Origin: Escherichia coli
Lineage (GTDB): Bacteria > Pseudomonadota > Gammaproteobacteria > Enterobacterales > Enterobacteriaceae
Assembly (NCBI RefSeq): GCF_001677475.2
Contig: NZ_CP015229.1
DNA length: 64,000 nucleotides
Direction: 5' to 3' (one strand)
Part shown: positions 1,413 through 55,144 of the stretch, in pieces
Layout: each line of letters opens with the position of its first letter
Numbering within the stretch: the first letter of the stretch is position 1
Notes under the pieces: model-generated
The model's input: only the letters and a program-made list of their open reading frames with translations
Told to the model about the DNA's origin: nothing
The model's database searches: none
Position numbers and translations under genes: made by a program

Positions 1413-3812
1413 TCAGATGTTCAGCGGTAACACGCTGCTCATCCAGCCTGGAATTTCTTCGGCGGGCAGGGGGCGGGAAAAGAAATATCCCTGAATAACG
1501 CGACAGTGGATCTTGCGTAGCATCTCAAATTGCTCTTTGGTTTCGACGCCTTCCGCTACGACGGTTAAATTGAGGCTTTGCCCAATGCTGGTAATGGCTT
1601 CGAGTAAGGCAAGGATGCGTTTTTCGGTCAGACAACGATCGACAAAACTTTTGTCAATTTTGATTTCCGTTACCGGAAGACTGACTAAGCGGGATAACCC
1701 GGAAAAGCCCGTGCCAAAATCATCTACCGATAAACCCACGCCCATATCACGCAGGATCTGAATGCGCTTAAAGATTTCGGTATCGTGTTCCATCATCATG
1801 CTTTCTGTGATTTCCACCGTCAGCTGGTGGCCGTCAATACCCCAGGCGTGCATTGCATCAGATACCTGATTAGGCAGCTGATTACTGCGAAAGTGCAGCG
1901 CCGACAAGTTAACGGATAACGCCGGGATATGAATATTCTGGCTACGCCATTCTGCTAACTGACGGCAAGCTTCCGCGATGACCCAGCGCCCAATATTTTC
2001 GATTTCACCAATCTCTTCTGCGAGAGGAATAAATCGTGAAGGGGGCACATGACCATGCAGGGGATCGTGCCAGCGAGCAAGGGCTTCGATGCCGTACAGT
2101 TCACCCGTTTCTGCGAAGATTTGTGGCTGGTAAACCAGTTTCAGTTGGTTATTGCTAATCGCTTCTTTCAGCGCTGCGCCTAAAACCAAACGCTCTTTTA
2201 CCATTTCGTTCATCGCCGGGCTGAAGAACTGCCAGCCGTTACCGCCATTCTTGCGAATATAATCCATTGCATTGTGAGCAGTGGAGAGCAGGTAATCGCG
2301 GTTTTTACCCACGTCGTAGCTGATGCCAATACTCAAGGTAAGCGGGAAGGGTTTATCGTCAATCATTATCGGCTTGCTGACCACATTCCGTAGCTCATCG
2401 GCGATTTGGGTAATGTTACTGACGTCGTTTTCCAGGCTCACGAGGACAAACTGCGTACCTTCGATACGACAGAGATACTGATCCGGTTTGAGTTTTTCAC
2501 GAAAGCGATTGACCACTTCCAGCAATGCCTGATCGGCCCACGCATAGCCAAGGCTATCAATCACATCCTGAATATGGTCAACACCGATGAGATACACCAC
2601 CGGAGAGACGGCTTTGTCGACAAGGTCATCGAGGTAATTGTGCAGGTTATTGCGATTTGGCAGACCGGTCATCGGATCAAATTGGATGAGTTGTTCAATA
2701 TGCTGACGGCTTTTTTCCTGTTCCAGCGCCAGCGCGGCCATATGCTGGCTGATATCTGCCACGCGTTCGATAAAGGCGCTGGTTTCTGCTCCTGACGAGG
2801 TTTTAATTTGCAGGATCCCCGCAGGCGCGCCATCACGCTGACGAATGGTCGCTGACCAGCTTTGCGCATTTTGAACTTCTGCACCGTGCGAAGATGACGC
2901 CCAGTGTATCGGCATCCCGTTGCGCAGTGCGAACAGCGAAACATGCGATTCGTTGAGAACAGATTCGATGTTACGACAAATGATTTCCCCCATTTCATGA
3001 AATGGCGGGCTGCTGCACATGGCGGCGAGAATATTGCCTTCAAGCTGGCGTATTTGTCGTTCTTCGGTGATATCCGAGAAGGTCATTACCAGGTTCTGCA
3101 GATGCGCGAGCACGTCATAAACCGGGCTGATAGAGGCTTTAATCCAGATTTTTTCACCGGTGCGCGTCAACAGCAGAAATTCGTCCTGATCGCGGGCGGT
3201 TTTCCATAGCAACTGTTGTAAACGAATGCGGTTATCGGCAGGGAATTCAGGAATGTTCAGGAGTGTATCGGGCTGCATACCGCTGGCTTCGCTAATGCAG
3301 TAACCAAACATTTCGGTAAATGCGCGATTGCACTGCACAATATGACGTTCCGGATCGAGGACAATCACCGGTCGGTCGAGATGGTCAACGGCAATAATCA
3401 ATTGTCGGGTCTGTTCTTTTTGCGCCATTTCTACGCTGGCATCCCGTACCAGCGCCAGGTAATAAACTTTCCCCTCGGCGCTCACTTTCGATAGCGCAAA
3501 ACGGGTCCAGATTTTACTGCCGTCTTTTTTCTCCAGCTGCAGCTCCCGACTCATCCCCTCAACGCGCGCTTTACCGCCTTCACGGTTATGACGAATGTAT
3601 TCAGGATGCGCGGGACGCAAATCCTGCGGAATCAGCATATCAATGTTATTGCCAATGACTTCTTCACGTTTGTATCCCCAGAGCTTCTCTGCGGCGGGGT
3701 TGAAAAACATCACTTCATCATTTTCGTTAATTAACACCGCACCCATCATATTTTGCTCAAGGGCGGGGAAAAAAATGCCATCGGCGGCATTATCCGCATC
3801 GGTTAGCTTCAT
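1413..3812 (-). CDS. dosP: Oxygen-sensing c-di-GMP phosphodiesterase (haem PAS, GGDEF-EAL)
   Basis: ORF 1413..3836; start trimmed to MKLTDADNAADGIFFPALEQN... (799 aa) as in E. coli DosP; EAL-type C-terminus. Confidence 0.9.
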   Translation of the reverse strand: MKLTDADNAADGIFFPALEQNMMGAVLINENDEVMFFNPAAEKLWGYKREEVIGNNIDMLIPQDLRPAHPEYIRHNREGGKARVEGMSRELQLEKKDGSKIWTRFALSKVSAEGKVYYLALVRDASVEMAQKEQTRQLIIAVDHLDRPVIVLDPERHIVQCNRAFTEMFGYCISEASGMQPDTLLNIPEFPADNRIRLQQLLWKTARDQDEFLLLTRTGEKIWIKASISPVYDVLAHLQNLVMTFSDITEERQIRQLEGNILAAMCSSPPFHEMGEIICRNIESVLNESHVSLFALRNGMPIHWASSSHGAEVQNAQSWSATIRQRDGAPAGILQIKTSSGAETSAFIERVADISQHMAALALEQEKSRQHIEQLIQFDPMTGLPNRNNLHNYLDDLVDKAVSPVVYLIGVDHIQDVIDSLGYAWADQALLEVVNRFREKLKPDQYLCRIEGTQFVLVSLENDVSNITQIADELRNVVSKPIMIDDKPFPLTLSIGISYDVGKNRDYLLSTAHNAMDYIRKNGGNGWQFFSPAMNEMVKERLVLGAALKEAISNNQLKLVYQPQIFAETGELYGIEALARWHDPLHGHVPPSRFIPLAEEIGEIENIGRWVIAEACRQLAEWRSQNIHIPALSVNLSALHFRSNQLPNQVSDAMHAWGIDGHQLTVEITESMMMEHDTEIFKRIQILRDMGVGLSVDDFGTGFSGLSRLVSLPVTEIKIDKSFVDRCLTEKRILALLEAITSIGQSLNLTVVAEGVETKEQFEMLRKIHCRVIQGYFFSRPLPAEEIPGWMSSVLPLNI

Positions 3813-3836
3813 GATTACCTCTGCATCCTGGCGCAT

Positions 3837-5219
3837 CTAAAGACTGGCTTTCCAGAGTTCAACACGGTTTCTACCTCGTCTTTTGGCGATATACAGAGCT
3901 TCATCGGCTATTTGAATGAGGCGCTCATAGTCAGGATGACCATTAAACATGGCGGCACCGATGGAAAGTGAGAGGGCAATATCCTCGCCGTTTGCGGCTT
4001 TCAGTTTGGTTTTCTCCACCCGACTGCGAATACGTTCTGCGGTACGTAACGTTTCGTTTTCCGAAGCTTCAGTCAAAACAATGATAAATTCATCGCCCCC
4101 GTAGCGGAAAACATAATCACTACTGCGGACGTTGTCATAAAAGGCCTGAGAGACTTTACGCAGAATTTCATCGCCAGTGTTATGGCCCCACGTATCGTTG
4201 ATCTCTTTGAATTTATCAACGTCAATAATCAGCACTGACAGCGGTGTACCGGTCCGGTTGGCATGGGCAATTTCGCGTTTGAAAATAGTCGGCAGGAAAC
4301 GGCGGTTAAGTAATTTCGTCAGTACATCCATACCGACTTCGTGGCGCGATACTTCTTCAAACAATTCACGCAGCAAGGTAATAATTTGCGATACGGTATT
4401 TCTTATCTGTAATAAAAATTTCACCCGCAGACTTCTGTTATTCAAATTCCTGGTGTTACGCATGGTTTGATTGAAAATACCGTCGAAATCCTGAATCAGA
4501 CGGGAGATATGGCCCACTTCGGCAATGCCGCTAAAATAATGTCGACCTTTATGGTTAAACCACAGGCCAAAATCAGCCTGGCTTAAAGGCAAACTACTGC
4601 CTAAATCAGAATCCAGCAGGACTTTATAGATAATATCTATTTCCCATGAAAGTAATGAGGCTATTTGCCGTTCTTTTTCTTCTTCGGCATTTTCCAGTAA
4701 CGAGAAGATACGATAGTTTTCATCTTCTTTTGAGGCACTACTGTCACTAAAGGTAAACGCGCGGGTCATCACTTCCATAGCGATATCAATACTGTTAATA
4801 GAGAAATGGTAGACCTGAAGTTTTTCTGCGGCGGAATAATCCGAAGAGAAGATGACCGGATAGAGGATTTTTTTCAGCACCCGAAACCCCATCTCGACAA
4901 TTTCTACCGGAATTCCTATGCGGGCATGCACTTCCGCGACGGTATGCTGGATTTGTATTAGCCTTTCGACATCGTCAACCTGGGCAGAAAGCACGTTAAT
5001 AATCCAGCGTTCCATCGCACTTTTCAACTGCCGCTCAACTTGTTCATTACTCAAGAATTCTTCGGCATGCGGGTCGATACGGACAATTCGGTAAAACTCA
5101 ATACTCAGATAATGGGCATGCGCAACGGCAATTTCCGCGGCTTTAGCACGAATGAGCGGATCTGCTTGTTCGACAAGCCCGGTCCACTCATCTTTCATTC
5201 TTTTAAAATACATCTCCAT
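3837..5219 (-). CDS. dosC: Globin-coupled diguanylate cyclase
   Basis: 460-aa ORF MEMYFKRMKDEWTGLVEQ...; GGDEF motif (YGGDEF) near the C-terminus; directly upstream of dosP (dosCP operon). Confidence 0.9.
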   Translation of the reverse strand: MEMYFKRMKDEWTGLVEQADPLIRAKAAEIAVAHAHYLSIEFYRIVRIDPHAEEFLSNEQVERQLKSAMERWIINVLSAQVDDVERLIQIQHTVAEVHARIGIPVEIVEMGFRVLKKILYPVIFSSDYSAAEKLQVYHFSINSIDIAMEVMTRAFTFSDSSASKEDENYRIFSLLENAEEEKERQIASLLSWEIDIIYKVLLDSDLGSSLPLSQADFGLWFNHKGRHYFSGIAEVGHISRLIQDFDGIFNQTMRNTRNLNNRSLRVKFLLQIRNTVSQIITLLRELFEEVSRHEVGMDVLTKLLNRRFLPTIFKREIAHANRTGTPLSVLIIDVDKFKEINDTWGHNTGDEILRKVSQAFYDNVRSSDYVFRYGGDEFIIVLTEASENETLRTAERIRSRVEKTKLKAANGEDIALSLSIGAAMFNGHPDYERLIQIADEALYIAKRRGRNRVELWKASL

Positions 5220-5595
5220 AATTCACACCCTTATAAGGCTGGGAAAGCAGACGGAATCAAAACGAAACGCAACGTGCGAGATCGACTAACTGCACCATAT
5301 TCTCCTGAAATATGAAGATATACTGAAAACAAATAAGCGACTTAGGACAGTTTCAATCTACGCTACTGTTCTTCAGAAGAGTATAGCCCATCGTAATTAT
5401 TTTTCGGTGACAGCGAATATCGTATGTTTTTTCATATTCATACATTTTTATTAGGGGATTTATGGCTATTTAACTAAGTGTGGTTAATTGCGTGGTGAAT
5501 TTGACTTAAGTAAGCATGATTACTAGTGGGATATTTCAAGAGGGTAGCAAGCCGGTGGGTAAACCACCGGCTTGTCACAAAGTATGAATGGGAGT

Positions 5596-6915
5596 TTAAC
5601 TGCCCCAACGACTTTGCAGATAGCTGACCGCTTGTTGAGTCTGCGGTTTATTCAGATAGTCCTCACGGAACAAGATGGTGCCGCTAATTTCTGGTACCGC
5701 ATCGTTAAGATCGAGCTGCTTTTTCAGTTCCGGTACGCCGCCGTTAATCATCCAGTCTGGCTCTATCTTTGAAGGTTCACCCACTTTATAGAAGGCGATA
5801 CCGATATACAGGCGGGTCCTGGTCGGTTTAACGACATCCGCCCACCATTTTGCCAACACGTCATAACGCGCGGCACTCCGTGAGAACGGCCAGTAAATTT
5901 GGGGAGCAATGTAATCCAGCAATCCTTGTTCCACCCATCGACGGGTGTCAGCGTAGGATTCGTCATAGGCTGCCGCGCCTCGGGTATCGGAACCGAGCGG
6001 ATCGTGTGATCGGTTACGCCACACGCCTGCCGGGCTAACACCAAATTCGACTCCCGGCTTAATGCTTTTAATGGTGTGCGATACCTTTGCAATTAACTGC
6101 TGAGTATTGTTGCGCCGCCAGTCTGCTTTTGACGCAAATGCGCCTCCGTATTTACGGTACGTTTCGTTATCATTTAGCCGTGAACCCGGTGATTCAGTAT
6201 AGAAATAGTCGTCAAACTGCACGCCATCTACCGGATAGCGGGAAACCACTTCCGCGACTATTGATGTGATCCAGTCCTGAACCTCAGGGATGCCCGGGTC
6301 GAGGACAAAGCGATCGCCGGACGTTCTGATCCAGTCGCGGTGTTGCACATAGACGCTCGCCGGTTGTTGAGACAGAGTGCTATTCAGTTCCCTGATAGTA
6401 CCGGGCTTCGTATTAACCGATACGCGATAGGGGTTAAACCAGGCGTGTACTTTCATCCCACGCTTGTGAGCTTCGTCGAGAATAAATTGCAGCGGATCGT
6501 AACCTGGATTTTCACCAATCTTTCCGGTCATAAGATCGGACCACGGCAAAATTTTCGATGGCCACAGGGCGGTACCGTCCGGCTTGACCTGGAAAAAGAC
6601 CGTGTTTATGCCGAGACGTTGCAGATGATCCAGTTTGTCGATCATCGCCTGTTGTTGTACACGTGCCCGGCTGGTGGGGTTACTAATGTTAACCGAGGAA
6701 ACCGGTGGCCAGTCGAGGCGAGACACCGTGGCCAGCCAGATGCCACGCATCGGTTGTGACGATTGTTGCGTCGTGGCTGGTGGCTTCGAACCTGTTGGTG
6801 GTGTCACCATTGACTCTGGGGGCGTGCTTTTGCAACTACACAGTAAAAGTGCCAGTGCAACCAGTACCGCGGGTCTTCTAATCGCTAATTTCTCGTTTCG
6901 GGAGCAGATATCCAT
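5596..6915 (-). CDS. yddW: Lipoprotein glycoside hydrolase YddW/DigH
   Basis: 439-aa ORF with lipoprotein signal (…LLLCSCKS) recognised as E. coli YddW. Confidence 0.85.
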   Translation of the reverse strand: MDICSRNEKLAIRRPAVLVALALLLCSCKSTPPESMVTPPTGSKPPATTQQSSQPMRGIWLATVSRLDWPPVSSVNISNPTSRARVQQQAMIDKLDHLQRLGINTVFFQVKPDGTALWPSKILPWSDLMTGKIGENPGYDPLQFILDEAHKRGMKVHAWFNPYRVSVNTKPGTIRELNSTLSQQPASVYVQHRDWIRTSGDRFVLDPGIPEVQDWITSIVAEVVSRYPVDGVQFDDYFYTESPGSRLNDNETYRKYGGAFASKADWRRNNTQQLIAKVSHTIKSIKPGVEFGVSPAGVWRNRSHDPLGSDTRGAAAYDESYADTRRWVEQGLLDYIAPQIYWPFSRSAARYDVLAKWWADVVKPTRTRLYIGIAFYKVGEPSKIEPDWMINGGVPELKKQLDLNDAVPEISGTILFREDYLNKPQTQQAVSYLQSRWGS

Positions 6916-6990
6916 ATATGCTGGTTTCCGGTAAACAGATGTGCGCTCATTCTCGTACTTATCCCGGTTAAGTCAATACGACAGCGAGCA

Positions 6991-7020
6991 CGAAAAAGGG
7001 AGCGATTAATTATCGCTCCC
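6991..7020 (-). terminator. Intrinsic terminator downstream of gadC
   Basis: Hairpin gggagcgat-taat-tatcgctccc at 6998..7020 preceded on the plus strand by aaaaa (T5 on the transcript). Confidence 0.65.
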
Positions 7021-7045
7021 TTGTCTTATAACCATTCAGACATGG

Positions 7046-8581
7046 TTAGTGTTTCTTGTCATTCATCACAATATAGTGTGGTGAACGTGCACGCGGGTGC
7101 AGGAAGAAGTGACCTTTTGGTGCGTTCTGACTGTTGATTGGCTCCAGAGTGACGCCGGTATTCGCTTTGCCTTTACGATCATGAACAGCATAGAGAATAA
7201 AGGGCAGGGCAAGTACCACCAGGAAACTAACGACCAGTAATTCAACATACATATCGGTAGAGTCACCCTGGATGTTATCCGGCGGCAGGAAGGAAACAAT
7301 AAACGCCATAATTGAAGTCAGCAGACCGACAATAGCCACGACCAGTTTCACCCCTTTACCACCAGGGATATTAAATGTGCGTTTTAAGTCAGGATGTTTA
7401 AGAACCAACACAATGTAGCCAATAAACAGCATGAAATAAGCACACAGATAAATCACCACCGTCAGCGCCAGTGCGATCAGGAAGGACATGTTGTTACCGC
7501 CACCGGTATTGGTGAGGATGATCAACGCGATAGAAGTAATCACCAGCTGCGAAATGACCAGCGTTACCGGTACGCCATTTTTGTTCATTTTAGCGAATGC
7601 CGCTGGCAGCAGGTTTTTCTGCGCTGTGACATACATCCCGCGAGAAGGACCAACAATCCAGGAGGCGATTTCCGCCAAAACACCCAGCAACAACAGTGCG
7701 GAGATCACGCGAACCGTCCACTCAATTTCCGGTGCCACATGGGACATCAGAACGGTAAAGGTTTGCATTACCCCTGCGGAGAGGTTGATTTCATTACCCG
7801 GAATGACCATCGCAATAGACAAACCGCCAACAGAGCTTAAGCAGATTGCCGCCACCATCAGCAGTAACATAGCCAGTGGATAGTCGCGCCCGGGGTTGCT
7901 CATTTCATTGACGTGAGTTGCGGAAGCTTCTACGCCCATATAACTCAAAATGAAGGCAACAAATACAACCAGGGTGCCCACTTTAGAGAAGTCAGGGAAG
8001 AAGGTCTTCGAATCCATTTCGATAGCAACGGGGGCACCGGAGTGCAGATAAATAGCCGCTAATGCGATCAAAATAAATGCAGGTAACAGGATACCGGCGA
8101 AGAAGCCAACTTTAGCAATTCGTGCCGTGTATTTCGTGCCACCAAACTGCGTTAATGCCAGCGCCCAAAGAATGATGAGTGCTGCAATAGTTTTGGTAAT
8201 GGGGTCTTCATTCAGCGCTGGCCATTTCAGGATGTAGGAGAGTGCCCCTAACACGAAATAGAGCATCGGAATAAAACCAATGGCGATTTGCAGATAGCCA
8301 AATGAGATCGCTGCAAATCCCCATCTCGGCCCCAGAGTATTTGATACCCAGGCGAAGACACCACCTTCTTCCCAGCCGTCGACGGTGGCCATTTCCGCAG
8401 CACAAAGTCCCACGGGAATAAACCATAAAATCCCGCCTAATAGCAGGAAGAAGACTAATGAAAAGCCCGATGTTGCGAAGGTAGGGTATTCATAAACAGC
8501 CATTACCATCGATGCCGTTATGGCAAAAAAGCCGAGTAATGTGAGCTGCTTAGCTTTACCTGTCTGTACTGATGTAGCCAT
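7046..8581 (-). CDS. gadC: Glutamate:GABA antiporter
   Basis: 511-aa polytopic membrane [39 protein letters not shown]... recognised as GadC. Confidence 0.92.
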
Positions 8582-8690
8582 ATTATCCCCCTAAAACGGT
8601 ATTCCTGTCGGAACCGCACCTGTTTTGTTCTGAAGCGTATTCAGAACAATATTTTCCGTTGCTAATGCCAGTGAACAGACTTTGGAGATT

Positions 8691-8716
8691 GTCCCGAAAC
8701 GGGTTCGTTTCGGGAC
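8691..8716 (-). other. 11-bp perfect stem-loop in the gadB-gadC intergenic region
   Basis: gtcccgaaacg-ggtt-cgtttcgggac; no U-tract follows, so more likely a processing or stability element than a terminator. Confidence 0.5.
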
Positions 8717-8736
8717 ACCGTTACCGTTAAACGTTA

Positions 8737-22186: not shown

Positions 22187-22304
22187 GAAGTTTATATCTT
22201 ATAGTATGTAGTTTAATTTAATCCATGTGAGCAAATTGCGCGATAATAGTCAATGAGGAATTCTTCTGCTGTGCGGATGACAGCAGAAGAAATGAGAAGA
22301 GGCA

Positions 22305-38544: not shown

Positions 38545-38619
38545 AAAAGGAGAATTTAAAAGTCGTTTGAAGTCGGCAATATTAAGCCGCATGCCATCTC
38601 TACATGCGGCTTATACGGT

Positions 38620-54975: not shown

Positions 54976-55144
54976 GGTTATCTTCAGGCGTGGAAAAGTC
55001 GCACTATTAAACGTGATTCCGATCACATTCTCAAGACACTACTTACAAATTACCTACAAGCTTACAACATCAACAGGTGCTGCATGTGGCACCTGTTGAT
55101 GATAAAGGCACATAGGATGTTGTAACTAATATAGTCAAATAAGA

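Follow-up and report, generated by a model that had tools for sequence, protein, structure and literature searches.

The digH (yddW) gene in a 64,000-nucleotide stretch of Escherichia coli DNA (hereafter, the window) is followed by a conserved hairpin, at 5548–5574, that looks like an RNA element terminating or stabilising the digH message at its 3′ end, not like a regulator of the neighbouring dosCP genes. On the combined evidence of folding, conservation and flanking composition, we give a probability of about 0.5 to the reading that this hairpin acts as a barrier to exonucleases at the 3′ end of digH mRNA after Rho-dependent termination, possibly serving also as a weak intrinsic terminator. 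In this reading the hairpin is part of the digH transcript, on the - strand. All flanking genes lie on the - strand as well. These genes are dosP (1413–3836), dosC (3837–5219; Pfam Protoglobin, DosC_2nd and GGDEF domains), digH itself (5596–6915), which encodes a GHL10 glycosyl-hydrolase-like lipoprotein (Pfam PF02638, E = 1e-135), and gadC (7046–8581); the coordinates were taken from the list of open reading frames, and the identities follow the Pfam domains and the RefSeq annotation of homologous loci. No RefSeq feature lies beneath the hairpin.

Read directly on the + strand, positions 5548–5574 are CAAGCCGGTGG-GTAAA-CCACCGGCTTG, which gives 11 perfect pairs and a 5-nt loop; the sense RNA on the - strand is CAAGCCGGUGG-UUUAC-CCACCGGCUUG. 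The hairpin starts 21 nt past the digH stop codon (TAA at 5598–5596), after a spacer at 5575–5595 (- strand) that forms the body of the 3′ UTR, and 328 nt separate it from the dosC ATG (5219–5217). The 11-bp stem was recovered on both strands, in the MFE as well as the centroid fold, and in some alleles the + strand version of the palindrome folds equally well or better. RNAfold of all variants and the alifold consensus further delimited an extended stem at 5544–5578 (- strand), in which the outer pairs G5578-C5544, U5577-A5545 and G5576.U5546 are separated from the perfect stem by an A5575.C5547 mismatch. The predicted folding energy was -23.2 kcal/mol for the window allele and -23.9 kcal/mol for the K-12 allele, and the 121-nt sense region folded with z = -3.9. 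A second helix predicted across the digH stop codon (CAAAGU...ACUUUG) was discarded, being absent from the alifold consensus and showing no covariation.

Chance alone would hardly produce such a hairpin. First-order Markov simulations, matched to the dinucleotide transition frequencies of the window, produced a mean of 0.08 perfect hairpins (at least 11 bp, loop of 3–9 nt) per 64 kb, and the motif at up to 3 mismatches occurred once in the window and 0 times in 100 shuffles. Its dimensions and location are those of an intrinsic terminator stem (approx. 5–14 bp, GC-rich, loop of 3–8 nt, on the sense strand downstream of a gene). The tail is different: counted from the full stem, T occupies 2 of the next 8 positions on the - strand and 1 of 8 on the + strand; counted from the core stem, the figure is 3 of 8. 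A terminator scan of 5000–7200 returned 0 sites; its U-tract rule required that, of 8 nt beginning 0–2 nt past the stem, 5 or more be T. The sole promoter-like site in the consensus promoter/terminator scan lay at 6976–6949, upstream of digH, and an Rfam cmscan of 4800–7200 at E ≤ 10 gave nothing overlapping 5548–5574. The initial annotation had described an 11-bp perfect hairpin ~20 bp past the yddW stop and ~330 bp before dosC, lacking a U-tract, and on each of these points direct reading, the hairpin scan and the empty terminator scan agree with it.

A 43-nt query centred on the hairpin found matches in 5381 of 5426 complete E. coli genomes, at a median of 1 place per genome. The exact window allele is a minority form (266 of 5426 genomes). 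The majority form, carried by ~4,200 genomes, is the K-12-type allele, in which the top G-C pair is lost (C.C) and four more pairs at the bottom result in a perfect 14-bp stem, GUAACAAGCCGGUG/CACCGGCUUGUUAC, with a 7-nt loop. Other natural alleles include the O157-type CACUGGC, which forms a G-U pair, others with a single A.G or A.C mismatch, and one that lacks 1 nt at the top of the stem. Every E. coli variant that we fetched retained a stem of at least 12 bp and a folding energy of -20 kcal/mol or lower. In E. coli MS20673, an IS1 junction falls within the hairpin 3′ arm (...CCCACTGGC joined to IS1; 1400–1650 of that locus, homologous to window position ~5552), and a deletion at the same locus spans dosCP through sra. 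The window segment 5150–5700 had its best match among the 5,426 complete E. coli genomes in strain 7/2, at 98.5% identity over 551 nt, and the DigH protein of the window was closest (98%) to that of an Escherichia sp. MOD1-EC7003 contig. The window may derive from a lineage outside that genome collection, such as Shigella or an unusual E. coli, or may have recombined locally.

We then compared the element across the genus, searching GTDB species genomes with DigH, which supplied five more lineages of Escherichia and 75 Enterobacterales of other genera, and running a metagenome DNA-pattern scan, which added 20 contigs and was anchored on the digH C-terminus, not on the hairpin. The 7-bp core GCCGGUG/CACCGGC was invariant, and at the same place, in every Escherichia variant sampled, including cryptic clades, E. 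whittamii and metagenomes. The loops differed (CUUUACC, UUUAC, CUUUAAA, CUUUAAG, AUGCAAG and AUUAAAG). In an alignment of 10 sequences, 89.5% of the cells were paired, compared with 30–49% when the partners were slid. The spacer at 5575–5595 resembles the hairpin in its conservation, with a mean pairwise identity of 0.7–0.88 across Escherichia clades, and differs in this from the sequence immediately beyond the hairpin on its 3′ side. Among the 75 other Enterobacterales, no homologous hairpin was found, and unrelated hairpins follow digH there.

The RNAalifold consensus of 15 variants comprised the 7-bp core and an outer 5-bp helix, and one outer pair changed between A-U (7 variants), G-U (1) and G-C (3). 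Formal support from covariation was weak, given the close kinship of the sequences: the alifold covariation term was -0.6 and the shuffle controls were not significant. By our own count, ~8 apparently independent one-sided changes lead to G-U or U-G pairs on the digH sense strand and 2 lead to A.C, a ratio that would reverse if the changes were read on the + strand. This bias is suggestive of selection acting on the - strand RNA (one-sided binomial ~0.055). In addition, a U-to-C change at a position of the nominal U-tract was compensated by an A-to-G change, which suggests that selection favours pairing over uridines.

Two natural gene arrangements separate the hairpin from the genes on its other side. 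In the Escherichia sp. MOD1-EC7003 contig (2818–3400), the ddp-dosCP block is absent and the hairpin is kept; the order there is digH, hairpin, REP-like sequence and then the convergent osmC-bdm pair, and the synteny breakpoint lies ~10 nt past the hairpin stem. In E. coli AREA_492, the hairpin is likewise kept and dosC is largely deleted; the deleted segment begins at the end of yddY and reaches into dosC, so that a dosC remnant of 165 nt lies fused close to the dosC promoter, upstream of an intact dosP. Coverage of the 551-nt query falls below 80% in about 1,070 of the 5,413 E. coli records, and the sampled partial matches (H25–H29) lack the same dosC-proximal 111 nt. These partial-coverage genomes are consistent with the deletion type of AREA_492, the only one that we looked at directly. 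That E. coli often loses DosC has been noted previously (PMC5635171).

A conservation footprint built from nine sequences of several clades placed the hairpin on the digH side of the intergenic region. Identity was 0.67–0.93 from digH through the hairpin, 0.56 at the hairpin 3′ edge and 0.11–0.3 around 5507–5473, and it climbed again only from ~5466 to the dosC ATG (0.73–1.0), which delimits a dosC promoter/leader block at 5466–5220. Approximately 80 nt of poorly conserved sequence thus lie between the hairpin and this block. Neither by co-occurrence with dosCP nor by conservation within the promoter region did the hairpin behave as a dosCP operator. Because it is kept in both MOD1-EC7003 and AREA_492, and because the footprint drops at its 3′ edge, the hairpin is tied to digH and not to dosCP.

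The dosC block has features of its own. A conserved sigmaS-type extended -10 element, GGGCTATACTCTT, lies at 5380–5392 on the - strand; it includes the conserved CTATACT, and its hexamer is at 5385–5380. This element is probably the -10 of the dosCP promoter, in which case the leader would be ~150 nt; the hairpin is located ~160 bp upstream of CTATACT, outside the dosC control block. The leader contains the small ORF yddY (5257–5298, - strand), which is intact, has the Shine–Dalgarno sequence CAGGAG and lies 37 nt upstream of the dosC ATG. Its protein has been detected by tagging in K-12 (PMC6001520), and a FliX:::yddY chimera from RIL-seq (K-12 1567208–1567269) maps to the dosC leader (PMC10954441). 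The yddY Shine–Dalgarno sequence and ATG-GTG are 100% conserved across Escherichia, and in cryptic clades the frame stops after 3 codons (MVP*, MVL* or MVR*), which indicates that the conserved part is the start of an upstream ORF and not the yddY peptide. Further upstream, a tandem 12-mer at 5479–5502 (- strand; AATTCACCACGC followed by AATTAACCACAC) is present as one copy in K-12, constituting a 12-nt indel polymorphism, and falls in the least conserved stretch of the intergenic region.

The sequence that follows the hairpin is C-rich and G-poor, and by composition it is a candidate rut region. This tract (5563–5437, - strand) begins in the hairpin 3′ arm and extends ~110 nt downstream. In 78-nt windows over it, C accounted for 24–31% and G for 6–10% (C/G of 3.0–3.8), and a C/G of at least 3 was reached in only 0.3% of windows on the - strand. 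Sequence identity in the tract is low (0.11–0.58), and its composition is kept in the other alleles with dosC downstream (C/G of 1.4–5.5, with 5.5 in K-12). Dar & Sorek 2018 (PMC6061677) described E. coli Rho-dependent transcripts whose steady-state 3′ ends are precise and directly follow a stable stem-loop that has no U-rich tail; just downstream of such ends, C was enriched over G and rut sites were found, and the stem-loops protect against PNPase and RNase II. The digH hairpin shares two of these features, a stable stem-loop without a U-tract and a C-over-G sequence immediately downstream.

These features suggest the following sequence of events. RNA polymerase would transcribe first digH and then the 21-nt spacer, after which the hairpin would fold (~-23 kcal/mol). 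In the absence of a proper U-tract, most polymerases would pass into the untranslated C-rich, G-poor tract, where Rho could load and end transcription ahead of the dosC promoter. PNPase and RNase II, acting 3′ to 5′, would then trim the transcript back to the hairpin base, so that the mature digH 3′ end would be fixed and protected. A minor fraction of polymerases may terminate directly at the degenerate U-containing UUGYUAC on the 3′ side of the outer stem. As a by-product, the dosCP promoter would be insulated from upstream read-through. The structure, its position, the conserved pairing, the tie to digH and the C-over-G composition downstream are observed; the roles of Rho and of exonuclease trimming, and any influence on the half-life of the mRNA, are inferred.

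We also searched published transcript-end, Rho and RNA-interaction data for the locus. The Term-seq data of Adams et al. 2021 (supplementary file 1) contain no 3′ end with the digH hairpin sequence, which low digH expression could explain. Nearby 3′ ends in the same study are those of the gadC terminator (K-12 1568900(-)) and of the gadB-gadC hairpin (K-12 1570594(-)). The bicyclomycin table of that study (supplementary file 2) lists no - strand Rho region between adhP (1553668) and pqqL (1573502), and the TRS and TERMITe supplements have no entry at the digH hairpin. In a Rho review, the sole mention of dosC concerns protein complexes and not the digH-dosC locus. The RIL-seq supplements contain only the dosC coding sequence and the FliX:::yddY chimera, with nothing at the digH 3′ UTR, so that an Hfq-bound sRNA from this 3′ UTR is unsupported.

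Several other explanations of the hairpin were weighed against these results. The initial annotation had offered a weak terminator, an RNA-stability element or a protein-binding palindrome influencing dosCP. The first two stand as a class, given the position at the digH 3′ end, the conserved pairing, the G-U bias and the C-rich tract. The third would make the hairpin a DNA site at which a dimeric regulator controls dosCP transcription. The perfect dyad symmetry of the window allele, with conserved arms around a variable centre of 5–7 bp, would suit such a site, and a genomic SELEX study reported, at low resolution, peaks of RNAP holoenzyme between yddW and yddV (PMC5493296). The gene arrangements described above speak against it, however, since the palindrome persists where dosCP is absent or dosC is lost, and so does its place outside the block at 5466–5220, ~160 bp from the putative -10. 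Common alleles, moreover, break the symmetry through transitions that still pair as G-U in the sense RNA (the O157-type CACTGGC), the outer stem shows compensatory change and not base-specific conservation, and by inspection the palindrome has no likeness to CRP or FNR half-sites. We therefore consider an operator highly improbable. That the hairpin belongs to a dispersed repeat family, whether REP/BIME or some other kind of intergenic palindromic unit, has next to no chance of being correct: it is a GC-rich extragenic palindrome, and a REP-like sequence lies just downstream of it in MOD1-EC7003, but it is single-copy across the 5381 matching genomes and also in the window, where up to 3 mismatches were allowed, has no Rfam match and, by inspection, does not resemble the REP consensus.

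The two remaining alternatives keep the hairpin at the digH 3′ end. It could be a self-sufficient, weak intrinsic terminator, in which the GCCGGUG/CACCGGC core is followed by a degenerate U-tract that allows partial termination without Rho. Its position is right and the stem and loop are of typical size; the tail after the core, UUGCUACC in the window and UUGUUACC in K-12, opens with two uridines, K-12-type alleles have 4 of 8 U, and one further variant (L008) has 5 of 8 and passes the reimplemented scan rule. In K-12-type alleles the upstream A-rich GUAACAA mirrors the tail UUGUUAC, as in many intrinsic terminators, and 12 of the 75 digH homologues in other Enterobacterales have a canonical hairpin with a U-tract within 120 nt of the stop codon. 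The window allele nonetheless falls short in its tail, with 3 of 8 U past the core and 2 of 8 past the full stem, and yielded no scan site in 5000–7200, a U-to-C change in the tail is tolerated when pairing is compensated, and Adams et al. 2021 report no Term-seq 3′ end here. A terminator of this kind, working without Rho, is a tentative possibility that we place well below an even chance. It is also conceivable, and in our view rather unlikely, that the hairpin is a relic without current function, a former terminator or the junction of a ddp-dosCP insertion, kept only through the close kinship of Escherichia lineages. The weak covariation statistics, the lack of a reported transcript end in the published tables searched and the rearrangement junctions at or just past the hairpin (~10 nt after the stem in MOD1-EC7003, IS1 in the 3′ arm in MS20673) would fit a relic. 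Kinship alone is insufficient, however, as conservation falls sharply just 3′ of the hairpin, and all sampled variants, the most divergent clades included, keep a stable hairpin with substitutions biased towards G-U.

If the reading as an exonuclease barrier after Rho-dependent termination is correct, the hairpin would be one more unannotated U-tract-free 3′ stem-loop closing a Rho-dependent unit in E. coli, which is an ordinary feature. It would also mark where the digH transcript probably ends and set the dosCP control region apart, at ~5466–5220. This could be of use in drawing transcription-unit boundaries and in designing digH and dosC reporters; the hairpin should stay out of dosC promoter constructs. 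A more elaborate version would make the region a conditional Rho-dependent insulator, in which limited Rho or an occluded tract would let transcripts begun at the digH promoter, or residual read-through from gadBC, continue into yddY-dosCP. We regard this as a long shot. Were it true, a septal peptidoglycan hydrolase and acid-stress genes would be coupled to oxygen-sensing c-di-GMP signalling, and alleles differing in stem length (11 bp or 14 bp) or in G-U pairs would tune this coupling from one E. coli lineage to another.

Among known systems, the REP/BIME stabilisers of mRNA 3′ ends are comparable in being extragenic GC-rich palindromes that could block 3′ exonucleases; the digH hairpin differs from them in being single-copy, without a REP consensus, and specific to the Escherichia digH 3′ UTR. 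The gadC terminator (6996–7022, AAGGGAGCGAU...AUCGCUCCCUUUUUCG) is a canonical intrinsic terminator, and the digH hairpin is likewise GC-rich, placed after a stop codon and followed by U-U after its core. Canonical intrinsic terminators such as that of gadC have at least 5 of 8 U by the scan rule, whereas the digH hairpin has 3 of 8 after the core. A precedent nearby is the gadB-gadC intercistronic hairpin (8690–8717), which is also long, perfect, situated just after a - strand stop codon and devoid of a U-tract; in contrast to the digH hairpin it has a mapped 3′ end (K-12 1570594(-)), and the two sequences are unrelated. Perfect hairpins of 11–13 bp without a U-tract also occur just past - strand stop codons at 55068–55101, 22261–22291 and 38583–38613, and of these and the one at 8690–8717 only the latter has a published Term-seq 3′ end. 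This suggests that U-tract-free 3′ stem-loops are common in the window region. With respect to the class described by Dar & Sorek, the digH hairpin departs in that the flanks of K-12-type alleles are partly A-rich and U-rich, which is typically absent in the class. It resembles the class in having a stable stem-loop just past the gene, stem and loop sizes like those of intrinsic terminators, no U-rich tail and a C-over-G sequence downstream.
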